A DNA stretch of 14,407 nt from a virus. Its lineage: Duplodnaviria; Heunggongvirae; Uroviricota; Caudoviricetes. The stretch's first letter is position 1, and each line of letters starts with the position of its first letter. A program made the translations under genes and the position numbers. Under the pieces are notes generated by a model. That model ran no database searches and was not told the origin of the DNA. It was given only the letters and a program-made list of their open reading frames with translations. Below are positions 1-14,407 of the stretch, piece after piece. The stretch spans positions 1 through 14,407 of the IMG/VR virus record IMGVR_UViG_2874915312_000003; one strand, given 5' to 3'.

Positions 1-200
1 CACAACATCCGAGGACAGCATCGTCCGCCAGCCTACAGAAGTCCGGAAAGCCATGGAAGGTCGTTGGGAGGAGGTACGAATTCTATCATGCAAAAAATAC
101 GTAAAATCGATAACGCCTAGAAATCATTCAATACTCGCACTATCGAAAGTTTACCAGCCAACCGCGGCACGTTCCTGCATACGACGTGCCGCAGCTTCTG

Positions 201-764
201 TTATTCCACGATAAAATTCCTAACCGAATTCAAATCCTTCAGACTATTCAGCTCTTCCTTCAGCTCCCGCTGACGGCGATAAATCTCATCGTTGCGATCG
301 ACCTGCGCCTGCACCATTGCTGCCGCCAGTTCTTCCAGTTCCGGCATCGACAGTTTCACCTGCTGATTATCGGCATCGCTCCACGCCATATGTGTTTGTG
401 CTGTGACAGATTTTGCCAGCATGACTACCGGGGACAGGCGGCCCAGTGAGTCGGGGCCAGCATTCCAGATACGACCGTTCCATTCAAACGTGAACGGCTT
501 CGCCTCCTGTTCTGTGCGCCATGCTTCAATTCCCTGACGTCTGGCCTCTCTGGCCGCTTCCAGCATTTCTGGTGTCACAGTGAATGGGGCTATCTCACCC
601 CATTTGCCGCTTTGCAGTTCCTGCCAGATTTGCTGACCCGTCGGAGCGACATCATCAGCGGTGGCTGTGTAGGGGACTGCCTGGTCCCTGTCGTCAAAAA
701 AAACGTCACAGTCTACTGCGCCACTTTCGGTATAACGGGGATTAATGATTTTTTTAATTTCCAC
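201..764 (-). CDS. Putative tail fibre assembly/chaperone-like protein (second tfa-like gene, directly 3' of stf)
   Basis: ORF 201..824 minus overlaps the stf stop by 50 nt. An in-frame GTG at 764 preceded by GAGGAA (6-nt spacer) is the likelier start. Assignment rests mainly on position after a tail fibre gene. Confidence 0.4.
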   Translation of the reverse strand: MEIKKIINPRYTESGAVDCDVFFDDRDQAVPYTATADDVAPTGQQIWQELQSGKWGEIAPFTVTPEMLEAAREARRQGIEAWRTEQEAKPFTFEWNGRIWNAGPDSLGRLSPVVMLAKSVTAQTHMAWSDADNQQVKLSMPELEELAAAMVQAQVDRNDEIYRRQRELKEELNSLKDLNSVRNFIVE

Positions 765-774
765 GGTGCATTCC

Positions 775-2043
775 TCACGATGTGCGAATAAAAAGCCCGG
801 GCATTGCGCCAGAGACATGAGCATCCGGCACCCCGGACAGGGCGCAATATGACCCTGGTAATGAATGCTCTGAACATCCCGTAATGAAAAATTGTGGGGA
901 TGCTATATACGTTCCGGTGGGAGTACTGGGCACTGAAATCCCCACCGGTCCCAGTCGTGAGCCTCTGTATGACTGCCCCCTGACAAGTCTGATGACTTTA
1001 TCACCGTCAGCTTCTCCCTGGTACGCAGCAATAATCAGCCCGCCAATGTCAGGGTCTCCCCATCTGTTGCGGACAGAGCTCGCCACGATTCTGTAAATAA
1101 TATCTTCTGTGGTTATATTTATTTTCACCCAGCCAGTCAGTCTGGATATGGGCCAATAGCAGTAGCGGGTGTGATAAATGGGGCCGTTAATGCCGTAAAA
1201 AGTAAGGGATTTGGCTCTGTACCGCGGTTCTGTTGTCTCAGGGCGTGCATCAGTCCACCGGATGCTGAGCACCCCTTCAAACCGTGTGTCGGGTATGATG
1301 ATGCCGTAGGGGCCAGCAACGGAATATTCACCTGGCAGCGCATTCCTTACCCAGGCCAGGAAATCACTCTTAGTGTCAAAACGGATAACATCTTCAGGCA
1401 GAAAAGCACACCCAAAGCCGAATGCGCCGGGTATCGCCAGACGGCCTTTTGTCCGGTCGTAAATGTCGCTCTGTGCTTCCATCGTGGCCGCACTTTTCAG
1501 CCCCAGATTATCCCGGGACTTCTGTTGTGCCTTTTCGCCTGCTGCTGCGATTTCAGACAGATGGTTAGCCGTTTTCAGGGTGCCGGTCAGCGCAGCATCA
1601 ATGTCATTTTTGGCCTGTTCTGCTGCGCGGGCATAACCTGCGGCTGCCGCCACATCCTGCGCCGTCTGCTGTGCGTTTCCGGCTGCGGCCCCGGCGCTCT
1701 GCTGCGCCTGCGCCACCATTTCCTCAAAGCGTTTGACGACATCCGGTTTCAGGTCGCCCTCATCAGGAGCAATCAGAAAGTCATTCAGCGTGCCGGGCTT
1801 TGAGTCCTCATATACAGCAATGTCGCCAACGTTGTACTCGTTGCGCCAGTCCTGTTTCAGATACACACCATATTTTCCAGTCCGCGCATGGAAACAGTAT
1901 TCACCATCGTTTCCTGTCATCACATCAGCAACAGTGTTCATCACCACTTCCGGGGTGTTTACCCGGGATTTCAGAATAATATGGTATCCGGACATGGGGA
2001 TACCTGCGCCATCAGTCAGCGCACCTGATATCACTACAGACAT
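775..2043 (-). CDS. stf: Side tail fibre protein, lambda Stf-like N-terminal domain
   Basis: 422-aa ORF. N-terminus MSVVISGALTDGAGIP...IAVYEDSKPGTLNDFL follows the lambda Stf N-terminal pattern (MAVKISGVLKDG...ITVYEDSQPGTLNDFL) as remembered. Followed by a tfa-like gene. Confidence 0.7.
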   Translation of the reverse strand: MSVVISGALTDGAGIPMSGYHIILKSRVNTPEVVMNTVADVMTGNDGEYCFHARTGKYGVYLKQDWRNEYNVGDIAVYEDSKPGTLNDFLIAPDEGDLKPDVVKRFEEMVAQAQQSAGAAAGNAQQTAQDVAAAAGYARAAEQAKNDIDAALTGTLKTANHLSEIAAAGEKAQQKSRDNLGLKSAATMEAQSDIYDRTKGRLAIPGAFGFGCAFLPEDVIRFDTKSDFLAWVRNALPGEYSVAGPYGIIIPDTRFEGVLSIRWTDARPETTEPRYRAKSLTFYGINGPIYHTRYCYWPISRLTGWVKINITTEDIIYRIVASSVRNRWGDPDIGGLIIAAYQGEADGDKVIRLVRGQSYRGSRLGPVGISVPSTPTGTYIASPQFFITGCSEHSLPGSYCALSGVPDAHVSGAMPGLFIRTS

Positions 2044-2066
2044 TGTTTTTCTCGCGATAAATTAAA

Positions 2067-2612
2067 TCAGGAAGAACCTTCCGGAGAGGCGGGCCATTCA
2101 ATGGCGTTGTATGAGGATTTATCAGTGATGGTGCTGAAATCCATCGCCTGCAGCGATTTCGCGTAAATACGACAGGCTTTCAGCTTTTCTTTATCTTCGT
2201 CGCTGATTAACCCCAGCAGCAGGTCTTCTTCCCATTCCCCTGTCCGGGCACTGACCTGAGCCAGAAGGGCATCACGCTCATCTTCCGCTTTGAGTCTGTA
2301 GTCAAAGACAAATTCATCATTGCGGTAAAACCAGTAACCCGGCGCGGTAATCCGTCGGTTAGCGGTAATATCAGGAACTTCAATAACACTGGCATTGCGT
2401 GGCTCGATGCCTGTCACATCCTTACCGACCCACACCACGCGACCATCTCCGGTGTAAGCTATTTTTATTGTGTCGCTGGCGAAATTCTTCAGCTCTTCAT
2501 ACCAGTTTTTTCCGTCTTCTGAAAAAAGCCAGGTGACCGAATATCGTTTTGTCATCTGATATTGTTCTGCTGTTTTCGGATTACCCGCAGTAATATTTTT
2601 TAAATGCAACAT
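2067..2612 (-). CDS. tfa: Tail fibre assembly protein Tfa
   Basis: 181-aa ORF. N-terminus MLHLKNITAGNPKTAEQYQMTK...WLFSEDGKNWYEE and C-terminal ...IEWP match E. coli prophage TfaQ/TfaR/lambda Tfa as remembered. ATG lies 2 nt after the stop of the upstream fibre fragment. Confidence 0.75.
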   Translation of the reverse strand: MLHLKNITAGNPKTAEQYQMTKRYSVTWLFSEDGKNWYEELKNFASDTIKIAYTGDGRVVWVGKDVTGIEPRNASVIEVPDITANRRITAPGYWFYRNDEFVFDYRLKAEDERDALLAQVSARTGEWEEDLLLGLISDEDKEKLKACRIYAKSLQAMDFSTITDKSSYNAIEWPASPEGSS

Positions 2613-2614
2613 TG

Positions 2615-3265
2615 TTAAATACTCGCTACGTTATACCAGGTGCCATTAATCAGTTTTTGCAGTGGTCGGTAATACACACCGTCAACGTTATCCGCTGAGT
2701 TACGGCCGGGGCTGTAATACATTTCATGGCCATACCGTACATCCTGTACCCCCTCTGTTCGATATTTATAGCGGGCATCGAAGTTTCCGTAATTTAACGG
2801 AATTACCTGTCCGTTAACAGTGAACACTATGCTGTTATCCGGGTTTCTCTGGCTGAAAAAATGCCAGCCTGAATCATCGCCAAGCTCTGCAACAACAGGC
2901 CTGGATGGATTACCCCACAAATAAAACGCTGCATTTTTCGTGGAGTTGTTGGCGCTGGATAACGTGAATTTTCTGACAGTTCCGGCCTGAATATTCTTAA
3001 AAGCAATAGCCACTCCATTCTGAAAGCGGAATACACGCTGACTATTAGCATAAACATCCAGAATACCGTCTCCATTCTGTTTAAATCCGGTGTCATTATC
3101 ACCAAGAACAATTGAATTCCCCCCCAGGGCGTTCTGAACGCCGATACCCAGCGCACCATTGACCTGCGAACCACCGCCAACAGACACTTTATGCGACATG
3201 GATATTTCACCCGTCCGCAAATTAATGGTGAACGGGCGCAGGGGACCAATATCGCCATTATTCAC
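2615..3265 (-). pseudogene. Tail fibre C-terminal (receptor-binding) domain remnant; 5' portion missing
   Basis: 216-codon ORF with Gly-rich tip-like sequence (HKVSVGGGSQVNGALGIGV...), immediately followed by tfa. Begins with GTG overlapping the holin stop and has no fibre N-terminal domain. First in-frame ATG is at 3199. Confidence 0.45.
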
Positions 3266-3473
3266 CTCTCGCAGCCTTACGCTTATCTTCTCTTATTTTG
3301 AAATACAGATTCGTCAGATAAGTCAGAAGCCCCAGAAGCAGACTTCCCAGCACACCAATCGCAGCCCACTGTGATGGACTGACCTGATCCAACCACTGCA
3401 AAAACCAGTAGCCGGCACTGCCGGCGGCGGTGCCGTAGGCAATGCCCGTTGAAATTTTGTCCATGGATTTCAT
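3258..3473 (-). CDS. Holin, lambdoid prophage EssD/EssQ type (71 aa)
   Basis: MKSMDK...[32 protein letters not shown] closely matches K-12 prophage holin EssD as remembered. SD GGAGGTGA sits upstream of the ATG. Hydrophobic core with a charged C-tail. Confidence 0.7.
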
Positions 3474-3633
3474 AGCCTCACCTCCGCAAATAACGGATGG
3501 CGTAGTTTTACACTGAGAAATGAAAGGGATTTGAAAAGAAAAAAACGCAAAAGCGGGCGAAACGATATATACAGTAAGGAAAGCACTCTATCCAACAAAC
3601 CACCCACAGTTAATCGGAATAAAAGCAGAGTGC

Positions 3634-3706
3634 TTATGAATGATCGCACGCCCGAAGGTTAGTATTTCTGCACAGCAATTTTGCAAAAAAAGGCGATCAT
3701 TCATAA
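3634..3706. repeat. Perfect 14-bp inverted repeat, TTATGAATGATCGC (3634-3647) / GCGATCATTCATAA (3693-3706), 45-nt spacer
   Basis: Read directly from sequence, in the tRNA-holin intergenic region. Confidence 0.8.
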
Positions 3707-3713
3707 CTTAAAC

Positions 3714-3759
3714 GTCTTTCAGTCACTCCGGGATTTCCCATCATCGCAGACTGAAAGAC
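3714..3759. repeat. Perfect 11-bp inverted repeat, GTCTTTCAGTC (3714-3724) / GACTGAAAGAC (3749-3759), 24-nt spacer
   Basis: Read directly from sequence, 7 nt beyond the 3' end of tRNA-Gly on the transcribed strand. Confidence 0.8.
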
Positions 3760-3765
3760 TCTGAC

Positions 3766-3840
<75 letters not shown>

Positions 3841-3843
3841 ATA

Positions 3844-3919
<76 letters not shown>

Positions 3920-3921
3920 GC

Positions 3922-3998
3922 TGGCCCACCACCGAGGACTCGAACCTCGCACCGTCAACTTAGAAGGTTGATGCTCTATCCGGATGAGCTAGTGGTGG
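3922..3998 (-). tRNA. tRNA-Arg (anticodon UCU, reads AGA)
   Basis: Reverse complement CCACCACTAGCTCATCCGGATAGAGCATCAACCTTCTAAGTTGACGGTGCGAGGTTCGAGTCCTCGGTGGTGGGCCA. Perfect 7-bp acceptor stem, anticodon loop CTTCTAA, T-loop TTCGAGT. Confidence 0.75.
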
Positions 3999-3999
3999 T

Positions 4000-4076
4000 T
4001 GGTGGCCCTTGCTGGACTTGAACCAGCGACCTGGCGATTATGAGTCGCTCGCTCTGACCAACTGAGCTAAAGGGCC
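4000..4076 (-). tRNA. tRNA with CAU anticodon, ileX/ileY-like (Ile2/lysidine type more likely than Met)
   Basis: Reverse complement GGCCCTTTAGCTCAGTTGGTCAGAGCGAGCGACTCATAATCGCCAGGTCGCTGGTTCAAGTCCAGCAAGGGCCACCA. Resembles E. coli tRNA-Ile2 as remembered. Ile versus Met identity cannot be settled by eye. Confidence 0.7.
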
Positions 4077-4085
4077 GGAGGCAGA

Positions 4086-4114
4086 ATAATAACCATATGT
4101 CATCACATCTGCAA
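4086..4114 (-). promoter_or_regulatory. Candidate sigma70 promoter for the tRNA cluster (-35 TTGCAG, 17-bp spacer, -10 TATTAT)
   Basis: Minus-strand hexamers at 4114..4109 and 4091..4086. The -10 ends about 10 nt upstream of the tRNA 5' end at 4076. Confidence 0.35.
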
Positions 4115-4160
4115 ACTCATCTGACCACCAGCGCGTTTAACGCCCTGTGCCATTTTTCAG

Positions 4161-4188
4161 GCACAAAAAAACCCGCATAAAGCGGGTT
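4161..4188 (-). terminator. Rho-independent terminator (minus strand)
   Basis: Minus strand reads AACCCGC-TTTAT-GCGGGTT followed by TTTTTTTGTG. Lies about 100 nt downstream of the antirepressor stop. Confidence 0.55.
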
Positions 4189-4284
4189 CTTTCAAGTGTC
4201 CATGTCTGCTATTCGCCTCGCGATACAGCTTTGCGGAGCTTACCGGAATTGAAGCAGTTTATGTGCAAAAATGCAAGAACTTTT

Positions 4285-4794
4285 TTAAAGCTGCATCAAC
4301 CTTTCCACCAGTTTATCTCTGCGAACAACAAACCAACCATTGGCTCTCGCCAGTTCCAGCCATGACTCAAGGGAAATAACAATATCATCATCCCGTAACT
4401 GAATTGTGGAAACAGTGACACCGCCTCTCTGATAACAGAGAACTCGCGTGTCGTAACTTTTCTGGCATGAAACTGGCGTTGACGGATCCTTTTGACTGAA
4501 ATAGCAGTCTTCCAGTTTTTCGAACACATCCCACGCCTGATCGGTTTCGAGCATTTTGGCGTGGCGTGCTGCGCCTCGTTCTGTCCAGAGGATGAGGGAG
4601 CGGGCTTTGGGTGAAACTGGATTTTGTGAGTAGTTTAAAGCGACCCGCAATTCTTTAAGGTCATTACCAACAACTTTGAAAAAGTGTTTCCCTTCAACGA
4701 AGCGTACTTTGTTCTCATGATGATTCTGGCGAATACGCACCGGCTCAGTGCCGTAAAGCTGCGCCAAAAGTTCGGTGGTAATAACAGGAATCTG
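4285..4794 (-). pseudogene. ORF6N-domain phage antirepressor-like protein, 3' part (interrupted by IS600)
   Basis: Translation ...IPVITTELLAQLYGTEPVRIRQNHHENKVRFVEGKHFFKVVGNDLKELR...SPKARSLILWTERGAARHAKMLETDQAWDVFEKLEDCYF matches the ORF6N consensus as remembered. The first 47 codons of track ORF 4285..4932 are read out of IS600 and are artefactual. Confidence 0.65.
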
Positions 4795-4837
4795 TGAGGT
4801 GTACTGGCAATAGCGGACACTACCATTTGTTCTTTTT

Positions 4838-5656
4838 TTAAGCAGCCATCTGATGATATTTTTCCCTGAAGGCTGCCAGGGAGATATTCCCCAGACGAGA
4901 GTGACGACGCTGACGATTGTAGAAAATCTCAATGTATTCCCGTATTACTGAGATGGCTTCATCCCGGTTATTAAAACGATAGTGGCTCAGGCTCTCATTT
5001 TTCAGCGTTCCCCAGAAGCTTTCCATCGGAGCGTTGTCGTAACAGTTACCTTTACGCGACATTGATGTTTTCAGACCAAACTGCTCCTGTATGACCCGGT
5101 AATCGTATGCGCAGTACTGTGAACCTCGATCAGAGTGGTGGATTAGCCCGGCAGGTGGGCGCTGGCTCCTGAGCGCCATAAACAGGGCTTTACCTGTCAG
5201 CTCTTTTGTCATGCGCTCTCCCATGGCGTAGCCGACAATTTCGCACGTATAAACATCTTTGATGCCAGCGAGGTACAACCATCCCTCCTGTGTGGCAACA
5301 TACGTCAGGTCCGCCACCCAGACCTGATTTGGTGCTGTAGGAGCGAACGTCTGGTTCAGCAGATTTGGCGCAACTGGCAGATTGTGGTTCGGGTTCGTAG
5401 TCGCTCTGAACTTGCGTTTCTGCTTACAGCGTAGCCTTAGCTCCTTACAAAGACGTGCCAGTCGGTCACGACCAACGATGATGCCATTCTCTGCCAGCTC
5501 CGTCTGGAGCCGCCGGGTTCCATATGTTTCGCGAGTGCGGATATGTGCCACCTTAATCTCCAGTTTTAGCCGCTCATCACTTTGTTTTCTGTCTGAGGGT
5601 TCATGCTGTACCCAGTTGTAATAACCGCTCCTGGATACACCAAATACCTGACACAT
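4838..5656 (-). CDS. IS600 orfB (DDE transposase catalytic part, expressed as OrfAB by -1 frameshift)
   Basis: 272-aa ORF with IS3-family integrase-core motifs (WVADLTYV...HSDRGSQY...NAPMESFWGTLK). Confidence 0.8.
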   Translation of the reverse strand: MCQVFGVSRSGYYNWVQHEPSDRKQSDERLKLEIKVAHIRTRETYGTRRLQTELAENGIIVGRDRLARLCKELRLRCKQKRKFRATTNPNHNLPVAPNLLNQTFAPTAPNQVWVADLTYVATQEGWLYLAGIKDVYTCEIVGYAMGERMTKELTGKALFMALRSQRPPAGLIHHSDRGSQYCAYDYRVIQEQFGLKTSMSRKGNCYDNAPMESFWGTLKNESLSHYRFNNRDEAISVIREYIEIFYNRQRRHSRLGNISLAAFREKYHQMAA

Positions 5657-5691
5657 CGCTTCAATGGGAAATTGTTGTCGCCATTGTTCGA

Positions 5692-5994
5692 TTAACGCGT
5701 ATTTTTCAGCGACTCCTGTGCAAAATACGCTGTTGCTTTTTTTAATATATCTCGCTCAAGGCGAGCTTCATTTAACGCCTTACGCAGTTGCAGAATTTCA
5801 GATTCCAGTTCAGCCACCGTGCGGGAACCAGGAGTACCGAGCCCTTTTCTGGCGGCGGTAACCCATTGTCCTAAAGTGCCTTCAGGAAGAGATAATCGGG
5901 AAGCGCCTTCACTGATCGAAAGTTGATTTTCAAGAACCGTTCTGACAGCTTCGGCTTTGAACTCTTTAGAGTAACGTTGGGTTTTTCTGCTCAT
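5692..5994 (-). CDS. IS600 orfA (helix-turn-helix / leucine-zipper transposase N-terminal part)
   Basis: 100-aa ORF starting 64 nt from the IS end, with a coiled-coil ELESEILQLRKALNEARLERDILKKA typical of IS3-family OrfA. Confidence 0.8.
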   Translation of the reverse strand: MSRKTQRYSKEFKAEAVRTVLENQLSISEGASRLSLPEGTLGQWVTAARKGLGTPGSRTVAELESEILQLRKALNEARLERDILKKATAYFAQESLKNTR

Positions 5995-6058
5995 TATTAG
6001 CTCCTTCTGATGCCATTCTATTTCAGGAAGGAGTGTCCGTTAAACTCAGGCTACCTCA

Positions 6059-6109
6059 CTGGTTATGGGTGATCGGGGAGAGAGTTTCAACAGAGATTTG
6101 AGTGGTCAT
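6059..6109 (-). pseudogene. ORF6N antirepressor-like gene, 5' part (MTTQISVETLSPITHNQ)
   Basis: Frame continues exactly across the IS600 insertion once the IS and one CTG copy are removed (...THNQ|IPVITT...). The ATG at 6109 has GGAG 9 nt upstream. Confidence 0.5.
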
Positions 6110-6272
6110 AACGATAACTCCGTACATTTGGAAATTATCGCCACCGACGACGCCAATCGAACTGGTGGCGAACTGTGCAGGGTTGGCGTAACCGGGTACG
6201 GAAACCGGCGAGCCTTTCGGCTCCCCCACACAGCCCGCCATAAATCGCGAATGTGACTGTGCAAACGATATG

Positions 6273-6294
6273 AAAAAAGACGCGGGCGCGTCTC
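6273..6294 (-). terminator. Candidate tR'-like intrinsic terminator
   Basis: Minus strand reads GACGC-GCCC-GCGTC followed by TTTTTT, about 55-75 nt downstream of the candidate late promoter. Confidence 0.4.
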
Positions 6295-6355
6295 ATATCG
6301 CTCCGTAAACATCCGGGACGCCAATCCCGACGCCAGATTTTGCTGGCGCGTGAGG

Positions 6356-6385
6356 AATATAGCCCCGGATAACAGATTGAGTCAA
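6356..6385 (-). promoter_or_regulatory. Candidate late promoter pR' (-35 TTGACT, 18-bp spacer, -10 TATATT)
   Basis: The -35 hexamer at 6385..6380 overlaps the Q stop codon (TGA at 6384..6382). The -10 is at 6361..6356. Lambdoid pR' sits immediately after Q. Confidence 0.5.
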
Positions 6386-6936
6386 CAAACGGTTTTTAGA
6401 TCCCCGGAAGAGAATGCATCACGCATCGGTAGATAGAGCATATATTCAGCAAGATTTAGCCATACATCTACCCGACTGCAGCACGTCCGGAAACACCACT
6501 CAGGGTGTGCGTCATTCAGCAATTCAGCCATTTTACGCTTAGTCATCCCCCGCCCTTCATACCGTTGCCGGAGGACACTAATCAATCCAGGATGCTCTGC
6601 CAGCACCTCACTTATGACTCTATCAATACATAACGCCTCTGCATCAGTACAATGCGCCAGCCAGGTCTTTTGCTTGCCATTGATCATCTCTCGCAAAAAC
6701 GCTTCCAGCTCAGGTTTCTCTATTCCCGCTTTTTTCATCCTGCGCAGGGCTTCATTGACGGCTGTTTTCGTCAATTTTTTGGATGCCAGCAACTGGTTAA
6801 ACATATTTCCCGCCTTACCGCCGCCAATATACGACCAGCGCCCCCACATGCGCAGTTTTCCCTGAATCCAGACACTTTCCAGCGTGGTGAGACGAAGGTG
6901 TTCCCCGCTTTTGCCTGTATTTGTTGGGTAAATCAT
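6382..6936 (-). CDS. Late-gene antitermination protein Q (Phage_antitermQ-like)
   Basis: Start taken at the internal ATG 6936 (MIYPTNTGKSGEH...), which has SD AAGGAAGG and overlaps the upstream stop as ATGA. Motif LRMWGRWSYIGGG resembles the W-G-x-W segment of Q21/QuuD-type proteins as remembered. Candidate pR'/tR' lie immediately downstream. Confidence 0.6.
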   Translation of the reverse strand: MIYPTNTGKSGEHLRLTTLESVWIQGKLRMWGRWSYIGGGKAGNMFNQLLASKKLTKTAVNEALRRMKKAGIEKPELEAFLREMINGKQKTWLAHCTDAEALCIDRVISEVLAEHPGLISVLRQRYEGRGMTKRKMAELLNDAHPEWCFRTCCSRVDVWLNLAEYMLYLPMRDAFSSGDLKTVC

Positions 6937-7223
6937 AAATAACCTTCCTTTCTCCAGATTTCTTGTGTGCGAAAAACACCTTCTGCATGCATCAGGCGTA
7001 ATTCTTCTTTGGTGTAATCGCTGGTTTTTACCCGCCCGTCGATTAAATCGTGGCATGAGCTACAGGCAATCGCTGCCTGCATATCGTGTGGTTTTGTCGC
7101 TGTTCCGCACGTCCCCGCCAGCCTGTAATGCGCCAGCACAGAAGTTTCGGGATTGTGATTGCAGTAGCCAGGGATTCTGACGGTGCACATCTGCCCCCGC
7201 GCCGCTTTACGTAAATCCACCAT
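6933..7223 (-). CDS. Cys-rich nin-region protein (YbcO/DUF1364-like)
   Basis: 96-aa ORF with spaced Cys/His residues (CTVRIPGYCNH...CGTATKPHD...CSSCHD). Start overlaps the upstream stop (TAATG). Family name is from memory. Confidence 0.45.
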   Translation of the reverse strand: MVDLRKAARGQMCTVRIPGYCNHNPETSVLAHYRLAGTCGTATKPHDMQAAIACSSCHDLIDGRVKTSDYTKEELRLMHAEGVFRTQEIWRKEGYL

Positions 7224-7822
7224 TACGCAAACTCCAGTAACTGCGCGGCCACATTTTCGACTTCCTCCGGAGAGGAAAATTTACGGAACAGGATCCAGTT
7301 CCACAGCACATTCAGTACAGATTTATAAACCTGCTGAAACTCGGTTTCGTCCATGTTCGCAAATGCGATAGATTTTGCCCTGCGCCCACGACTACCATCA
7401 GGATAAATATGCTCGGTGTAAAATCCGGCCTGAATGGTTACCCACTCGCGGAAAGCGTCAAACGACTTTAGCAATGCCGTATCCCGGGTTCTGCATGTCG
7501 CAACTGTATTAAGGTATTGCTCTGCGGCATCACTCAGGGCTGGAGTGTGTTCCCGACCTACTGATTCGCACAGGTAATCAACGAAGCCTGATACCAGTTT
7601 TCGTTCGCGAGGCGTGATCGCCCCACCGACCGGAGTCCAGTAATCAAATCCCAGTTGCAGGAGTTTGAAAAAACGCTTGTGGAATGCGTAGTTACGCACA
7701 CGCTTAAAGTCTGCGTGTATCCACTCACCTATTTTGATTTGATGCAAAAAATCGCAACTCTCCGGCGTCGCCGGGAGAAGTAATCCGGAAGAGGTTTGTT
7801 TGACCAGTTGTATATGCGCCAT
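7223..7822 (-). CDS. Lambdoid nin-region protein (DUF1367-like), unknown function
   Basis: 199-aa ORF, translationally coupled to the next gene, located between the Rem-like gene and Q. Confidence 0.45.
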   Translation of the reverse strand: MAHIQLVKQTSSGLLLPATPESCDFLHQIKIGEWIHADFKRVRNYAFHKRFFKLLQLGFDYWTPVGGAITPRERKLVSGFVDYLCESVGREHTPALSDAAEQYLNTVATCRTRDTALLKSFDAFREWVTIQAGFYTEHIYPDGSRGRRAKSIAFANMDETEFQQVYKSVLNVLWNWILFRKFSSPEEVENVAAQLLEFA

Positions 7823-7955
7823 CGTAGTTCTCCGCTGGCGCAGTAGAATGGGTGTTCAGCCCGTTATGTAGTATACCAGAATTAATGCCAATACTAACAG
7901 GGTAATGCTGCCAACTTACTGATTTAGTGTATGATGGTGATTTTAAGGTGCTTGC

Positions 7956-8231
7956 GTGGCTTCCATTTCCATCAGATGTCCTTCCTGCTCCGCTACTGAA
8001 GGCGTGGTGCGTAACGGCAAAAGCACTGCCGGGCATCAGCGCTATCTCTGCTCTCATTGCCGTAAAACATGGCAACTACAGTTCACTTACACCGCCTCTC
8101 AGCCCGGTACGCACCAGAAAATCATTGATATGGCCATGAATGGCGTCGGATGTCGCGCCAGTGCACGCATTATGGGCGTTGGCCTCAACACGGTTTTACG
8201 TCACTTAAAAAACTCAGGCCGCAGTCGGTAA
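7956..8231 (+). CDS. insA: IS1 InsA
   Basis: [40 protein letters not shown]..., 91 aa. Confidence 0.9.
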
Positions 8232-8653
8232 CCTCGCGCATACAACCGGGCAGTGATGTGATTGTCTGCGCTGAAATGGACGAACATTGGGGCTACGTCG
8301 GTGCTAAATCACGTCAGCGCTGGCTGTTTTACGCGTATGACAGGATACGGAGGACGGTTGTGGCGCACGTCTTCGGTGAACGCACTCTGGCCACACTGGA
8401 GCGTCTTCTGAGCCTGCTGTCGGCCTTTGAGGTCGTGGTATGGATGACGGATGGCTGGCCGCTGTATGAATCACGCCTGAAGGGAAAGCTGCACGTTATC
8501 AGCAAGCGTTACACTCAGCGCATTGAGCGACATAATCTGAATCTGAGACAACATCTGGCAAGGCTGGGACGGAAGTCACTGTCGTTCTCAAAATCGGTGG
8601 AGCTGCATGACAAGGTCATCGGGCATTATCTGAACATAAAACACTATCAGTAA
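8150..8653 (+). CDS. insB: IS1 insB reading frame (expressed as InsAB' fusion by -1 frameshift at the A6C motif near 8207)
   Basis: 167-codon ORF overlapping the insA 3' end. TTAAAAAACTC slippery motif present. Confidence 0.85.
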
Positions 8654-8752
8654 GTTGGAGTCATTACCTACTAACAGGATGTTCTGACTCGCAATTCGGT
8701 AATGCTGCCAACTTACTGATTTAGTGTATGATGGTGATTTTAAGGTGCTTGC

Positions 8753-9028
8753 GTGGCTTCCATTTCCATCAGATGTCCTTCCTGCTCCGCTACTGAAGGC
8801 GTGGTGCGTAACGGCAAAAGCACTGCCGGACATCAGCGCTATCTCTGCTCTCATTGCCGTAAAACATGGCAACTACAGTTCACTTACACCGCCTCTCAGC
8901 CCGGTACGCACCAGAAAATCATTGATATGGCCATGAATGGCGTCGGATGTCGCGCCAGTGCACGCATTATGGGCGTTGGCCTCAACAGGGTTTTACGTCA
9001 CTTAAAAAACTCAGGCCGCAGTCGGTAA
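8753..9028 (+). CDS. insA: IS1 InsA (copy 2; T->R substitution relative to copies 1 and 3)
   Basis: GLNRVLRHL versus GLNTVLRHL in the other copies. Confidence 0.9.
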
Positions 9029-9450
9029 CCTCGCGCATACAACCGGGCAGTGATGTGATTGTCTGCGCTGAAATGGACGAACATTGGGGCTACGTCGGTG
9101 CTAAATCACGTCAGCGCTGGCTGTTTTACGCGTATGACAGGATACGGAGGACGGTTGTGGCGCACGTCTTCGGTGAACGCACTCTGGCCACACTGGAGCG
9201 TCTTCTGAGCCTGCTGTCGGCCTTTGAGGTCGTGGTATGGATGACGGATGGCTGTCCGCTGTATGAATCACGCCTGAAGGGAAAGCTGCACGTTATCAGC
9301 AAGCGTTACACTCAGCGCATTGAGCGACATAATCTGAATCTGAGACAACATCTGGCAAGGCTGGGACGGAAGTCACTGTCGTTCTCAAAATCGGTGGAGC
9401 TGCATGACAAGGTCATCGGGCATTATCTGAACATAAAACACTATCAGTAA
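8947..9450 (+). CDS. insB: IS1 insB frame (copy 2; W->C substitution, DGCPLYES versus DGWPLYES)
   Basis: Direct comparison of the three copies within the window. Confidence 0.85.
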
Positions 9451-9698
9451 GTTGGAGTCATTACCCGCAATTCATCCAGCAGTTTATCATTTCCCATAAT
9501 GTCACTTACCCTCATCGGTAAAAAAATTGCCTTTCGACCATTACGATACATTATTGATTTTGGGGTTTCAGGGAAGTAATCCATTTCGACTATAACTGAC
9601 AGGTCATCACGACGTATGACTGCGTATTTGCTACTAAATAGTTTCTTTATTTTTTCCACGATGCCTCCAGGTTTATAAGTACAAACGGTTATATCCAC
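9444..9698 (-). CDS. Rem-like small prophage protein; last 5 native codons replaced by 6 IS1-derived codons
   Basis: GTG start at 9698. Removing both IS1 copies and one copy of each duplication restores an 83-codon ORF ending ...LLDELRVRTSC, with its stop inside the copy-1 target duplication. Position (upstream of Q and nin proteins, downstream of hokD) mirrors rem in K-12 Qin. Identity to Rem is from memory. Confidence 0.5.
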
Positions 9699-9842
9699 AT
9701 AGAGACAAAAATATTAATCTGAAAAACATTTATTTCACGCCGTATATTTGATTGTTTAATGTGCAAGTACAATGACTTTTATTTTTTGTTGTGTATATAA
9801 TCAAATATATGGTTATTTTTCACCCTGCGTATTCAGCACGCA

Positions 9843-9867
9843 ACAAAAAACCCGCCGAAGCGGGTTT
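9843..9867 (-). terminator. Rho-independent terminator downstream of hok
   Basis: Minus strand reads AAACCCGC-TTCG-GCGGGTTT followed by TTTTGTTG, 68 nt after the hok stop. Confidence 0.7.
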
Positions 9868-9934
9868 AGTGCGGGTGCGTTGAGGATGCCTGACACATGA
9901 GAGGTGGCGAGGGATTTCTCCCCCGCCTGGTCTC

Positions 9935-10090
9935 TTACTCCTCAGGTTCGTAAGCTGTGAAGACAGCGACCTCCGTCTGGCCGGTTCGGATTCGTACCTC
10001 GCAGAGGTCTTTCCTCGTTACCAGTGCCGTCACTATGACGGTTAAACAGATGACGATCAGGGCGATTAACATCGCCTTTTGCTGCTTCAT
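9935..10090 (-). CDS. hokD: Hok/Gef-family type I toxin, HokD (RelF)-like
   Basis: 51-aa MKQQKAMLIALIVICLTVIVTALVTRKDLCEVRIRTGQTEVAVFTAYEPEE matches K-12 HokD as remembered. SD AAGGAG is 8 nt upstream. Track ORF 9935..10147 adds an in-frame 19-codon upstream extension (MSHKCRLASYVPKGKEKQA). Confidence 0.8.
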   Translation of the reverse strand: MKQQKAMLIALIVICLTVIVTALVTRKDLCEVRIRTGQTEVAVFTAYEPEE

Positions 10091-10431
10091 AGCCTGCTTC
10101 TCCTTGCCTTTCGGCACGTAAGAGGCTAACCTACATTTGTGAGACATAGATTGGGCCTCAGATTAATGTTAAGCGTCTTGCAGGACGCGTAATGTTAACT
10201 GGGGCTTTTCTCTGTCTGCCTTACAGTGGCATGCCCGAGGCAGACAGCCTCAAGCACCCGCAGCAATCTTACCGATACCGATAAGAAAACGCTATTTTTT
10301 ATTGCCAGCACCTTCTATCCAGGCTAATTTATCTGCGTCAGAACGGCGCAATGCGCTCGCCTGAGATACGTTTACTTGCCATGGTAACAACAGGTAACGG
10401 CAATTGCTGTTTCTGTTTTGTTTCCTTCAAA

Positions 10432-10456
10432 AACCCCGGACCATCAATCCGGGGTT
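10432..10456. terminator. Terminator-like hairpin AACCCCGGA-CCATCAA-TCCGGGGTT with T-runs on both sides
   Basis: Plus strand is followed by TTTTTGTTTGTT (stronger); minus strand by TTTTTGAAGG. Sits directly 3' of the 27-aa peptide ORF. Confidence 0.5.
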
Positions 10457-10464
10457 TTTGTTTG

Positions 10465-10548
10465 TTAACCCCAACGGCAAATCGAATACACCACCATCGC
10501 CATCGCCATCGCAATTCCTACCGTGGTGAATGCCTCAGGCCAGGTCAT
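10465..10548 (-). CDS. Candidate 27-aa hydrophobic peptide (MTWPEAFTTVGIAMAMAMVVYSICRWG)
   Basis: Not in the ORF track (below size cutoff). ATG at 10548 has SD GGAGGTG (5-nt spacer) and overlaps the stop of the upstream frame as ATGA. TAA at 10467-10465 is followed at once by the hairpin. Contains three tandem GCGATG codon pairs (plus-strand CATCGC x3 at 10495-10512). Confidence 0.35.
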   Translation of the reverse strand: MTWPEAFTTVGIAMAMAMVVYSICRWG

Positions 10549-10906
10549 TGATTCACCTCCTGCGGTGGTTCCGGTAGCGGCATCCAGTGAGTTGAGCTCT
10601 CTACTTCAACGCCGTCTTTGTCCACAAAAGCCATCTTATTCCCGCCACGAGTGGGGCAAAAAACCTTATCCCAGGAACCGGGGAATACATTCCCGAGATC
10701 ATCGAGAAGAATCACATCGCAATATTCAGCAGGAACTGCATCACTACAGCTTATCCAGCTAGAGTTACCGGAGAGTTGCCAGCCTTACGCATGGCCATTT
10801 CCACGATTTCAACCATATCTCCTGGTGGAATTTTACAAAGTTGCCCAATACATTTCTGCTGCCTGGCATATTCGAGAATGTGCTCCAATTTGGTTCGATT
10901 AATCAT
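10545..10906 (-). pseudogene. Gene split into two frames: 51-aa N-terminal ORF (10906..10751) plus 79-codon open frame (10784..10545), probable frameshift
   Basis: Frame A MINRTKLEHILEYARQQKCIGQLCKIPPGDMVEIVEMAMRKAGNSPVTLAG has SD AAGGGAG and overlaps the upstream stop (TAATG). Frame B ...SCSDAVPAEYCDVILLDDLGNVFPGSWDKVFCPTRGGNKMAFVDKDGVEVESSTHWMPLPEPPQEVNQ has no plausible start of its own. The frames overlap at 10751-10784 around a direct repeat AACTCT x2. Confidence 0.35.
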
Positions 10907-11571
10907 TATTTATCTCCCTTAAGCATGGCAGCGCGGCAGGCGTTCCAGCCATCAACATAATCAAACGTATTACTATCGTTTGGCCCGATTTCATCCGGCA
11001 CTATCGGCTCTGGTTGGATAGTGACGTTGGCAAAGGCAGCACGCAAACCGGTTTTAATTTCTTCGATTTCATCAGAGCCAAGCGATGAATCTGACAGTGC
11101 GTGATGGAATGCGTAAGCCATGTCGTCGTTTACTGCAACCGGTACTGCCGGCGCTGCGTAAAGCGGTGTTATATCTGCCCGAAAATCACATGCTTTATGC
11201 AGTCGTACCCAACGCTCAACTTCCGCTTTGTCAAAATATATAGCAGTGAACGTATTAGATTCCTGGTCAACTTGAGTAAACGTCACCTTCCACGCTACAG
11301 CTACGGCTTTCCATCCATCAGGTTGTCGCATTCGCGGGGCAGCATAAAGCTCATGCATTCCATCAGGCAGCGAGTGACCCACATACTCACCGAACCCGTC
11401 AATACACATGCCCCCATCTTCAACAATGCATTCCGCTACAGGCTCTGCTTCCAGTGATGCCAGAGCGATAAGCGCCAGTTCACGAATTTCACCGCCGTCT
11501 ATATCGTCAATATCATCGCGGCCAGAAATGTTAGCCAGCCATTGCAGTCGCTCTTTGGTAATAGTGGTCAT
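10906..11571 (-). CDS. Acidic 221-aa hypothetical prophage protein
   Basis: Long ORF with start overlapping the HNH stop (ATGA). Internal repeat of LYAAP motifs (ELYAAPRMRQPDGWK and ITPLYAAPAVPVA). Confidence 0.5.
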   Translation of the reverse strand: MTTITKERLQWLANISGRDDIDDIDGGEIRELALIALASLEAEPVAECIVEDGGMCIDGFGEYVGHSLPDGMHELYAAPRMRQPDGWKAVAVAWKVTFTQVDQESNTFTAIYFDKAEVERWVRLHKACDFRADITPLYAAPAVPVAVNDDMAYAFHHALSDSSLGSDEIEEIKTGLRAAFANVTIQPEPIVPDEIGPNDSNTFDYVDGWNACRAAMLKGDK

Positions 11572-11933
11572 GCCGTAGCCCCTTCTTGATATTTTTCAAA
11601 CCAGAACACAACCGGGTCAGATTTCATTTCAACCAATCCCATACGAACCAGCGCTTTGCCTTTCCCGGACGCAAGGAATTCACGACGACCATCACTGATA
11701 ATTCGTCGATAATCTTCCAGGCTACTGCAATGCTTGTGCAGATTGCATGGGTGGCATTCTGGTACCATGTTGGATATATCGTCACGTTCCTGGTGAAGCA
11801 TATTTCCATCAAAACGAATGACCGGTTTTACATGGTCTGCATGCCACTTTTCGCCAAGTTCGCAGCCGCAATAAGCGCAGCGACCACCGAACTTAATGCG
11901 CAGTTCTGCACGTTGTTTTTTCGTCAGTGCCAT
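11568..11933 (-). CDS. HNH endonuclease
   Basis: CAYCG...WHADHVKP...NMVPECHPCNLHKH is an HNH / Zn-binding motif. Start taken at ATG 11933 (MALTKKQ...) with SD AAGGAAAG, rather than the track start 12023. Confidence 0.65.
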   Translation of the reverse strand: MALTKKQRAELRIKFGGRCAYCGCELGEKWHADHVKPVIRFDGNMLHQERDDISNMVPECHPCNLHKHCSSLEDYRRIISDGRREFLASGKGKALVRMGLVEMKSDPVVFWFEKYQEGATA

Positions 11934-12189
11934 ATCAGCTTTCCTTATACGGATTAATTTTATTGTGCAGTGTGTTGAATGACGCCCATACCACGTCGTT
12001 ATACAATTCAATAACTGGCTCAATTATTTTTCCGATTATCCAGACAAAAATTAGCGGGGATATCGGTGTCATCAACACGATAAACAGAATGAGAAACAGG
12101 AATTCTGTTGTTCTACTCTTTCGCGGATATTTTTGGTAATGCTGCCAACTTACTGATTTAGTGTATGATGGTGATTTTAAGGTGCTTGC

Positions 12190-12465
12190 GTGGCTTCCAT
12201 TTCCATCAGATGTCCTTCCTGCTCCGCTACTGAAGGCGTGGTGCGTAACGGCAAAAGCACTGCCGGACATCAGCGCTATCTCTGCTCTCATTGCCGTAAA
12301 ACATGGCAACTACAGTTCACTTACACCGCCTCTCAGCCCGGTACGCACCAGAAAATCATTGATATGGCCATGAATGGCGTCGGATGTCGCGCCAGTGCAC
12401 GCATTATGGGCGTTGGCCTCAACACGGTTTTACGTCACTTAAAAAACTCAGGCCGCAGTCGGTAA
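12190..12465 (+). CDS. insA: IS1 InsA (copy 3)
   Basis: Protein identical to copy 1 InsA. Confidence 0.9.
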
Positions 12466-12887
12466 CCTCGCGCATACAACCGGGCAGTGATGTGATTGTC
12501 TGCGCTGAAATGGACGAACATTGGGGCTACGTCGGTGCTAAATCACGTCAGCGCTGGCTGTTTTACGCGTATGACAGGATACGGAGGACGGTTGTGGCGC
12601 ACGTCTTCGGTGAACGCACTCTGGCCACACTGGAGCGTCTTCTGAGCCTGCTGTCGGCCTTTGAGGTCGTGGTATGGATGACGGATGGCTGGCCGCTGTA
12701 TGAATCACGCCTGAAGGGAAAGCTGCACGTTATCAGCAAGCGTTACACTCAGCGCATTGAGCGACATAATCTGAATCTGAGACAACATCTGGCAAGGCTG
12801 GGACGGAAGTCACTGTCGTTCTCAAAATCGGTGGAGCTGCATGACAAGGTCATCGGGCATTATCTGAACATAAAACACTATCAGTAA
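12384..12887 (+). CDS. insB: IS1 insB frame (copy 3)
   Basis: Protein identical to copy 1. Confidence 0.85.
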
Positions 12888-13022
12888 GTTGGAGTCATTA
12901 CCGATATTTTTTTCTAAATAATGTAACCATTCATTACCGCCCTTTCGGGCGGTCTCCTGATGATTTGAGGGTGCAGAAATCCCTCCGGTTAGAGATTAAA
13001 TTTTTAACAGTGCTAAATTTAA

Positions 13023-13248
13023 TTATTCAGTTCTGGATTTTGTCGCCCTGCGTATCCGCGCTTTCGCATTACGCTCAATCTGTATCAGCTTTTCTATATT
13101 TCTCCGCCTTTCCTGTTCCTCCTGGCGCAATAGCCTTACATCATCTGCCAGTCTGGTTTCTCTTTTTGCCACAGAGAGCATCCAGTCAAACGGCTCCACA
13201 ACCGCACCGCAGATTTTACAGCAGACCTGACGCTCTTTTTCGTCAACC
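13023..13248 (-). pseudogene. 3' fragment of an unidentified phage gene truncated by IS911 (...CCKICGAVVEPFDWMLSVAKRETRLADDVRLLRQEEQERRRNIEKLIQIERNAKARIRRATKSRTE)
   Basis: Minus-strand frame is open from the IS911 boundary to a TAA at 13025..13023. Charged, coiled-coil-like tail. No start codon inside the fragment. Confidence 0.25.
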
Positions 13249-13256
13249 TGAAGTGG

Positions 13257-14407
<1,151 letters not shown>

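Follow-up and report, generated by a model that had tools for sequence, protein, structure and literature searches.

The window considered here is a stretch of 14,407 nucleotides (nt), positions 1 to 14,407 of the IMG/VR virus record IMGVR_UViG_2874915312_000003 (Caudoviricetes), and the question raised by one of its loci is whether an open reading frame (ORF) of only 27 codons, placed between a DUF551 gene and the toxin gene hok, is a gene at all and, if it is, what its product might do. The small ORF occupies positions 10548..10465 of the minus strand and encodes MTWPEAFTTVGIAMAMAMVVYSICRWG, followed by a TAA stop codon (10467..10465). A Shine–Dalgarno (SD) sequence, GGAGGTG (10560..10554, minus strand), lies inside the codons with which the upstream DUF551 gene ends (..QEVNQ*) and is separated by a 5-nt spacer from the start codon. 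The latter (ATG, 10548..10546) overlaps the upstream stop codon (TGA, 10547..10545) as ATGA (10548..10545, minus strand), creating a termination–reinitiation junction. A tract of (GCGATG)x3 (10512..10495, minus strand) codes for AMAMAM, and past the stop codon there is a GC-rich, symmetric hairpin (10460..10428) with an A-run and a T-run at its sides, terminator-like on either strand. The SD sequence, the overlap, the 27 codons, and the hairpin are all present, on the minus strand, as an earlier note on this DNA had described them. Its placement of the ORF just upstream of hok is correct as to order, but the distance is considerable, with 378 nt to the ATG of hok (10087) and ~205 nt to the hok/sok RNA element (10259..10085). 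Taken as a whole, the sequence data are explained best, and with a good deal of confidence, by a real, translationally coupled phage gene that likely encodes a one-helix membrane peptide and is followed by an ordinary terminator unrelated to it.

The significance of a 27-codon ORF comes solely from comparative data. Exactly 27 codons are kept in 125 of the 130 distinct contexts (88 of 91 in an earlier set of copies), so that the loss of the frame in homologous loci, which the earlier note had expected of a chance ORF, is not what is observed. A first sample, anchored on the protein, was biased to identical peptides, and selection was therefore computed on samples anchored in the flanks, that is, on the downstream terminator sequence and on the upstream tail of DUF551 coding for HWMPLP. 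In the terminator-anchored sample the 27-codon ORF is intact in 14 of 15 distinct sequences, the exception being a deletion junction, and every DUF551 gene ending with ..EVNQ/EVRQ/ELNR and ATGA is followed by the small ORF, two of these alleles (L215 and L132) being nonsense. Among 26 distinct flank-anchored alleles, the ratio of nonsynonymous to synonymous substitution rates (dN/dS, Nei-Gojobori) is 0.22 in the frame of the ORF, and 0.125 among close alleles, compared to 1.06 and 1.67 when the two alternative frames are read, with 13, 9, and 21 variable sites found at codon positions 1, 2, and 3, respectively. The comparison of synonymous and nonsynonymous changes that the earlier note had proposed thus reveals purifying selection in the ORF frame only. 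The diverged alleles MNWPEAFTAVGVAIAVAFILYSLFRWG and MIWPEAFAITGVAIAIDFLVYVICRWG, as well as MSWPEAFATVGIVMAAALGLYSICRWW from a phage-plasmid, share ~60–85% nucleotide identity with the consensus allele and retain the length of the peptide, together with residues M1, W3, P4, E5, A6, G11, A15, Y21, R25, and W26. From these comparisons we infer that the small ORF is a genuine protein-coding gene and that it is probably translated.

An explanation that does without a protein would be that the 84 nt are conserved as DNA or RNA, be it a recombination linker, a regulatory part of hok, or a structured RNA, with the ORF being incidental. The mosaic breakpoints detected by BLAST, which fall precisely on the ATG and directly behind the stop codon, coincide with both ends of the ORF, and most alleles share more than 90% nucleotide identity; the segment therefore serves as shared homology for recombination. 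Such an explanation is nevertheless quite improbable, since the substitutions have a three-base periodicity and dN/dS is below 1 solely in the ORF frame, alleles with only ~60% nucleotide identity still retain the motif and the length, insertions and deletions in the tract are multiples of 6, and the start codon, the SD sequence, and ATGA persist downstream of sequences that are unrelated to one another. Constraint of a non-coding kind cannot account for this pattern of selection.

The ATGA overlap with the upstream gene is found in 130 of 130 distinct contexts (90 of 91 in the earlier copy set). The upstream genes are highly mosaic and encode early proteins of the Ea22-like/DUF551 type, whose C-terminal tails are of at least four unrelated kinds (..HWMPLPEPPQEVNQ, ..NGLISVEDVLR, ..NDLKNIEQEVNR, and ..KKKGMNQ), and each of these classes brings its own GGAGG-like element, suitably spaced before ATGA. 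As the breakpoints are at both ends of the ORF and ATGA is constant, the ORF is a module in its own right, always joined on as the distal, translationally coupled cistron. A consensus scan, which a weak promoter could escape, found no σ70-like promoter near the ORF on either strand, and the product is presumably made solely from early, antiterminated phage transcripts, as the sequence suggests. The ORF ends a run of early accessory genes, located either in the nin region, as in the window, or, in Stx phages, beside xis-int or hok; in VT1-Sakai it directly follows an Ea22-like gene, ~400 nt upstream of xis-int. The same junction might be read differently, with the small ORF being a C-terminal extension that, through a frameshift fusion, would anchor the upstream Ea22-like/DUF551 protein in the membrane. 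The small-ORF frame is indeed open for 17–32 codons upstream in many loci, and in one locus without the ATG (L091) the two are fused in frame. Scarcely any credence can be given to this alternative, however, because the ATG and a properly spaced SD sequence are kept in 130 of the 130 contexts, the unrelated upstream classes share no slippery site, and a shift of +1/−2 would be needed.

The suggestion of the earlier note that the product could be a small membrane protein is supported by the purifying selection on the frame, combined with the presence of an 18-residue hydrophobic segment. The segment consists of residues 7–24. Its mean Kyte–Doolittle hydropathy is ~2.1 and its summed Hessa dG is about 0, with ranges across variants of 1.9–2.5 and −1.8 to +1.5, respectively, the assignment of a membrane helix being a simple scale calculation rather than the output of a dedicated predictor. 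W3 flanks the segment at one end and Y21, R25, and W26 at the other, and small residues are spaced within it at i, i+4 (G11/A15 and A13/A17). Both ends of the peptide are conserved, with M-x-W-P-E-A-F at the N terminus and Y21..C24-R25-W26-G27 at the C terminus (WPEAF...Y..CRWG), and these polar termini are conserved more strictly than the hydrophobic core. By analogy with characterised small membrane proteins of E. coli, the product probably spans the inner membrane once and recognises a specific partner. Scans of the peptide against Pfam, NCBIfam, PHROGs, and PADLOC found nothing significant, with no Pfam or NCBIfam match at E up to 10. The family phrog_4612 (E = 0.02–0.13) was considered as a set of over-extended ORF calls and was rejected, as the upstream in-frame extension added no score, and the pilin matches at E ~3 in a profile search of the PDB were dismissed as chance.

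Since the peptide resembles TisB, ShoB, DinQ, and the Ibs peptides (IbsC among them), as well as Hok/Gef, in its size and hydrophobicity, lies beside hok/sok in the window, and is linked to hok in 87 of the 130 contexts, it has to be considered whether it is a type I toxin-like membrane peptide, perhaps a second toxin next to hok, controlled by an antisense RNA. This view, raised also in the earlier note, is improbable, and several properties of the locus speak against it. The consensus scan detects no promoter-like site close to the ORF, whether for the ORF itself or, on the other strand, for an antisense RNA, no RNA family scores above its threshold, and there is no structured 5′ untranslated region. 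The SD sequence is strong and accessible and the upstream overlap is constant, so that the ORF would be translated whenever the operon is. As judged from the sequence, a design with an exposed SD and coupled translation is the opposite of that of a tightly silenced toxin gene. The plus-strand antisense RNA ending at the hairpin that the earlier note had envisaged cannot overlap the ORF, because on that strand the hairpin (10428–10460) precedes the complement of the ORF (10465–10548). The peptide matches neither the Hok/Gef model nor any other toxin model, a match to NF007279 at 9e-13 being obtained for the adjacent hok; hok is not nearby in one third of the copies; and the better conservation of the termini compared to the core suggests specific recognition. 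On the plus strand, the Rfam matches in the hairpin region (STnc30, PsrR1, Thr_leader, and others) fall far short of their gathering scores and reflect the terminator. The linkage to hok is best explained by morons (hok/sok and other toxin–antitoxin cassettes) inserting beside the end of the operon.

The hairpin has a stem of 13–15 bp, with the A–U-extended stem located ~5 nt and its G/C core ~10 nt past the ORF stop. Its RNA folds with a dG of −23.7 kcal/mol on the minus strand and −21.2 kcal/mol on the plus strand (z ~−4.8), and none of 200 shuffled sequences (0/200) folds as well. Because it co-travels with the hok module, it is read from its sequence as probably an ordinary end-of-segment intrinsic terminator, probably bidirectional, and since it is symmetric it would probably stop plus-strand transcription arriving from the sok side as well. 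It belongs to the hok-carrying module and has no mechanistic tie to the peptide. Downstream of the ORF stop, 41 sequence classes are found among 143 instances. The hairpin of the window is present in ~47 of them; in ~44, of the 933W/Stx type, there is no terminator and the hok promoter/5′ element begins 44 nt past the stop; in 16, of the ArgO145 type, an unrelated hairpin is followed by convergent toxin–antitoxin genes; and the remaining ones have either other hairpins at +6 to +30 nt or the next gene with its own SD sequence. Besides the hairpin of the window, at least five unrelated ones occur. In the 933W-type Stx phages (L460, 1201–1300), where no terminator separates the accessory genes and the small ORF from the hok 5′ element, read-through transcripts would therefore give 5′-extended hok mRNAs.

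The position of the hairpin had led the earlier note to consider a leader peptide coupled to termination, in which translation of the short ORF would control the hairpin and hence read-through into downstream genes such as hok. In the window only ~5–10 nt do separate the stop codon from the 5′ arm of a strong terminator, a spacing of a few nucleotides that is also seen in trpL, thrL, and pheL, and a terminating ribosome could occlude the stem. An attenuator is nonetheless highly improbable. Terminator and ORF are not conserved as a pair, the former being present in about one third of the 143 instances, absent in about another third, and otherwise replaced, so that, unlike in trpL, thrL, and pheL, it is interchangeable or missing. 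It is the amino-acid sequence itself, beyond the mere length of the ORF, that is selected, and runs of regulatory codons are absent. The minimum free energy fold of 141 nt shows an isolated hairpin and no competing antiterminator that would pair with the ORF, and hok has its own promoter and RNA element. The Rfam hits to Thr_leader and the rimP leader are weak, sub-threshold, and stem from the terminator alone.

The tract of GCGATG units, which the earlier note regarded as slippage-prone, was surveyed with an anchored gap pattern, a scan for the bare GCGATGGCGATGGCGATG motif, which is generic, being uninformative. The consensus tract of the family is imperfect, GCGATG-GCGGTG-GCGCTG, and codes for ..AMAVAL..; the perfect triple GCGATG occurs in the window only among 103 distinct IMG/VR contexts, and none of the aligned E. 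coli copies carries it. It arose from the consensus via two point substitutions, yielding V16M and L18M, both of which are private to the window and turn the unit into the sequence of the first unit, which hints at a templated, slippage- or conversion-like event. The length is standard in 102 of the 103 contexts. An allele with four units and 29 amino acids (+6 nt) is found in strain NCCP15648 (H110), alleles with two units and 25 amino acids (−6 nt) are found in strain CFSAN029787 (H113) and at L384, and strain 639 (H111) carries a separate allele with a frameshift due to a 1-nt deletion. The notion of a slippage-prone tract is borne out only marginally, by rare in-frame gains and losses of hexamers, the perfect triple of the window having arisen through the two point substitutions. 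As the unit has six bases, slippage alters the length of the helix and cannot switch the gene off. A contingency (phase-variable) locus was considered and rejected, since changes in length are both rare and in frame.

When searched with the 84-nt ORF alone, 5,426 complete E. coli genomes yielded 3,105 copies, spread over 1,631 of the genomes (~30%), with up to 7 in a single genome and 163 of them on plasmids. A tblastn search identified it in 94 phage records, including 933W, VT2-Sakai, VT1-Sakai, Min27, BP-4795, and ArgO145, and 509 stretches of IMG/VR were confirmed to contain it. Among representatives with one genome per species, it is present solely in E. coli and Shigella flexneri, bar two short contigs that are probably contaminants. 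A diverged copy, MSWPEAFATVGIVMAAALGLYSICRWW, is carried by the P1-like phage-plasmid pMS6198C (98 kb; L461, 2501–2584), where it overlaps a small upstream gene through ATGA and the next gene begins 3 nt past its stop; the family is therefore not confined to lambdoid phages.

Despite this distribution, the small ORF is not called in the PGAP annotation, and in the reference record of 933W, at positions 58829–58912 of the complement, it falls into an unannotated gap between ST933Wp77 and sokW/mokW/hokW. An exact look-up of the 27-residue peptide in a large protein database showed that few submitters have deposited it (AOM45384.1, ASL59396.1, ETI78407.1, and similar entries), under the labels 'hypothetical' or 'bacteriophage protein'. 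The NCBI entries named 'DUF551 domain-containing protein, partial' (for example, GGESMTWPEAFTTVGIAMAVALVVYSICRWG, P0012) are the small ORF read in from a contig edge, and the co-clustering of the peptide with 121-residue DUF551 proteins at 90% was rejected as an artefact of these mislabelled partial entries. The Rac, Qin, DLP12, and e14 prophages of K-12 contain no homolog of the small ORF, which for this reason has no curated gene name. Searches of the literature and of supplements, by sequence motifs and by the hokW/Ea22 context, found no description of the peptide in the library searched. In Min27 (L006), an ORF82 annotated on the opposite strand covers the region of the small ORF and hok and is probably spurious.

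Among known systems, the closest in kind are the single-pass inner-membrane proteins of E. coli with at most 50 residues, such as KdpF (29 amino acids), CydX (37 amino acids), YohP (27 amino acids), AcrZ, and MgtS. Proteins of this sort are often missed by annotation, some overlap the cistron next to them in an operon, and they work as binding partners of larger membrane proteins. The peptide described here is likewise below that limit, has one hydrophobic helix with aromatic and charged ends, and is embedded in an operon, but it is phage-borne, has no sequence similarity to proteins of the KdpF/CydX/YohP type, and lacks a homolog in K-12. It belongs with the phage-encoded small hydrophobic proteins. 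As for its genomic niche, the early genes of the exo-xis/b-region of phage lambda (ea22, ea8.5, orf60a, orf61, and orf63) offer a parallel, with ea8.5 holding in lambda the position that the small ORF has in VT1-Sakai, and early expression of the small ORF would follow from that position; the product of the small ORF is, however, much smaller than those of the exo-xis genes and hydrophobic. The Ea22/exo-xis/nin accessory niche of lambdoid phages influences developmental decisions. In the listed titles and abstracts of the papers retrieved on this niche no such small ORF is mentioned, and it is not one of the exo-xis genes that they study. In the nin region of lambda, intrinsic terminators make the expression of Q dependent on antitermination. 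The hairpin of the window, like lambda tR2–tR4, follows the replication genes and precedes Q in the early-right operon, although there is no sequence relationship, and the hairpin is part of the hok module, symmetric, and apparently bidirectional.

Several observations weigh against regarding the small ORF as a selected gene for a membrane peptide, or at least limit what can be read from it. An ORF of 27 codons is not beyond chance by itself, as 38 ORFs of at least 20 amino acids are found in the same 2 kb. Null alleles do occur, comprising the nonsense alleles at L132 and L215, the 1-nt deletion in H111, and the lost stop codons at L023, L055, and L065. In the latter three loci (IMG/VR), the stop is replaced by GTG, AAG, or GAA, leading to extended products of 38–53 amino acids, apparently at a recombination joint exactly at the end of the ORF. 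The family is young and narrow, essentially limited to Escherichia/Shigella, and for that reason a part of its conservation is due not to selection but to recent common ancestry and to recombination. The hydrophobicity is moderate, with the summed Hessa dG close to 0, making insertion into the membrane plausible, not assured. The same peptide allele follows all upstream tail classes, so a partner is not readable from the linkage, and both the function and the partner are purely a matter of inference. Furthermore, the peptide is absent from the supplements of a RIBOseq study of Sakai and of a survey of the Enterobacteriaceae microproteome (PMC5597208, PMC11188072).

The surroundings of the ORF bear on the state of this particular copy. 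Pfam and Rfam searches place it in a defective lambdoid prophage, within an early-right region of the nin type, where the order on the minus strand is an HNH gene, a gene for a 221-residue Ea22-like protein, DUF551, the small ORF with the hairpin, hok/sok, DUF1367, YbcO, and a DUF1133/Q-like gene. The DUF551 gene (10906..10545, minus strand) is a pseudogene here, divided into fragments of 51 codons (10906..10751) and 56 codons (10715..10545). Compared to strain FDAARGOS_944, which is the closest relative among the complete E. coli genomes (99.1% identical), it is frameshifted by a 4-nt deletion (CCGG) near 10763/10762, and the small ORF differs from its counterpart in that strain by exactly two substitutions, V16M through a G-to-A change and L18M through a C-to-A change. 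Since ribosomes from the true DUF551 start would halt at 10751, the coupling of the small ORF to full-length DUF551 is broken in the window, and what is left is the SD sequence and a GTG-started DUF551 remnant of 56 codons. With its upstream partner frameshifted and two private nonsynonymous changes, the copy in the window, residing in a decaying prophage ridden with insertion sequences, may no longer be expressed or selected.

On the other side of the ORF, the hok/sok element, comprising the hok mRNA leader and the Sok target (10259..10085, minus strand; Rfam RF01794, 118 bits versus a gathering score of 59), is an adjoining, independent type I toxin–antitoxin module. The coding sequence of the hok toxin (50 amino acids; 10087..9935, minus strand), to which the match to NF007279 belongs, is a neighbour that lies outside the small-ORF unit. 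The spacer between the hairpin and the hok promoter contains a perfect palindrome, GCGCAATGCGC (10347–10357), and is conserved, travelling with the hok module in many genomes. Just downstream of hok, a sub-threshold Rfam hit to isrK (9845–9926, minus strand; 30.6 bits versus a gathering score of 50, E = 2e-4) overlaps a terminator-like hairpin (9867..9848) and could be either the 3′ fold-back/terminator region of the hok mRNA or an IsrK-like prophage small RNA.

The rest of the window is marked by mobile elements. Three copies of IS1, with insA/insB-sized ORF pairs, are found at 7956–8653, 8753–9450, and 12190–12887 (within 7927–9450 and 12161–12887); two of them are positioned head-to-tail, ~100 bp apart, which is unusual, and Pfam DDE_Tnp_IS1 is confirmed for one copy. 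Two transposase ORFs of the IS3 family (rve) are located at 4838–5656 and 13257–14096. The prophage is a defective remnant that misses its lysis and head genes, as the Q-like gene (6382–7056) and the IS3-family element (4838–5656) run directly into the tail-fibre genes (775–2612).

Returning to the reading of the small ORF as a coupled gene for a membrane peptide, the following course of events can be proposed. The family is spread among the temperate phages and prophages of Escherichia/Shigella (lambdoid and Stx phages, as well as some P1-like phage-plasmids), with the ORF serving as the last cistron of an early accessory run and lacking a promoter of its own. Its translation would take place on the early polycistronic mRNA, by means of the SD sequence within the upstream gene and of AUGA termination–reinitiation, as the conserved design suggests, whereas the hairpin would mark the end of a transcription segment. 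The peptide would then be inserted as a single-pass helix into the inner membrane, with R25 on the cytoplasmic side, and might bind a conserved membrane protein rather than damage the membrane non-specifically.

If the small ORF is the gene that the comparisons indicate, ~30% of complete E. coli genomes, as well as the reference Stx phages 933W, Sp5/VT2-Sakai, and VT1-Sakai, carry a selected gene that is omitted by standard annotation. A simple profile would let annotation pipelines add it, and the mislabelled 'DUF551, partial' entries find their explanation. The locus also provides a clean example of a gene-sized block of homology, both ends of which are joints of mosaic recombination. The peptide is a new candidate among the phage small membrane proteins, a class repeatedly found to control host physiology, and its gene sits in the poorly understood Ea22/exo-xis/nin region, which affects the lysis–lysogeny decision in Stx phages. 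We can speculate further, while considering it rather unlikely, that the peptide is a membrane effector of Stx and other temperate phages of E. coli, produced early after induction, universally co-opted by them and targeting a conserved protein of the host inner membrane. On this view, the frequent placement of the ORF directly before hok, at 44 nt in the 933W type, could reflect a functional link with hok/sok, a module shown to aid the release of Sp5 (PMC8621323). The target of the peptide might then be, for example, a transporter, a component of the divisome or of energy coupling, or a phage receptor, and the effector would influence superinfection exclusion, the timing of lysis, or the release of phage and toxin.

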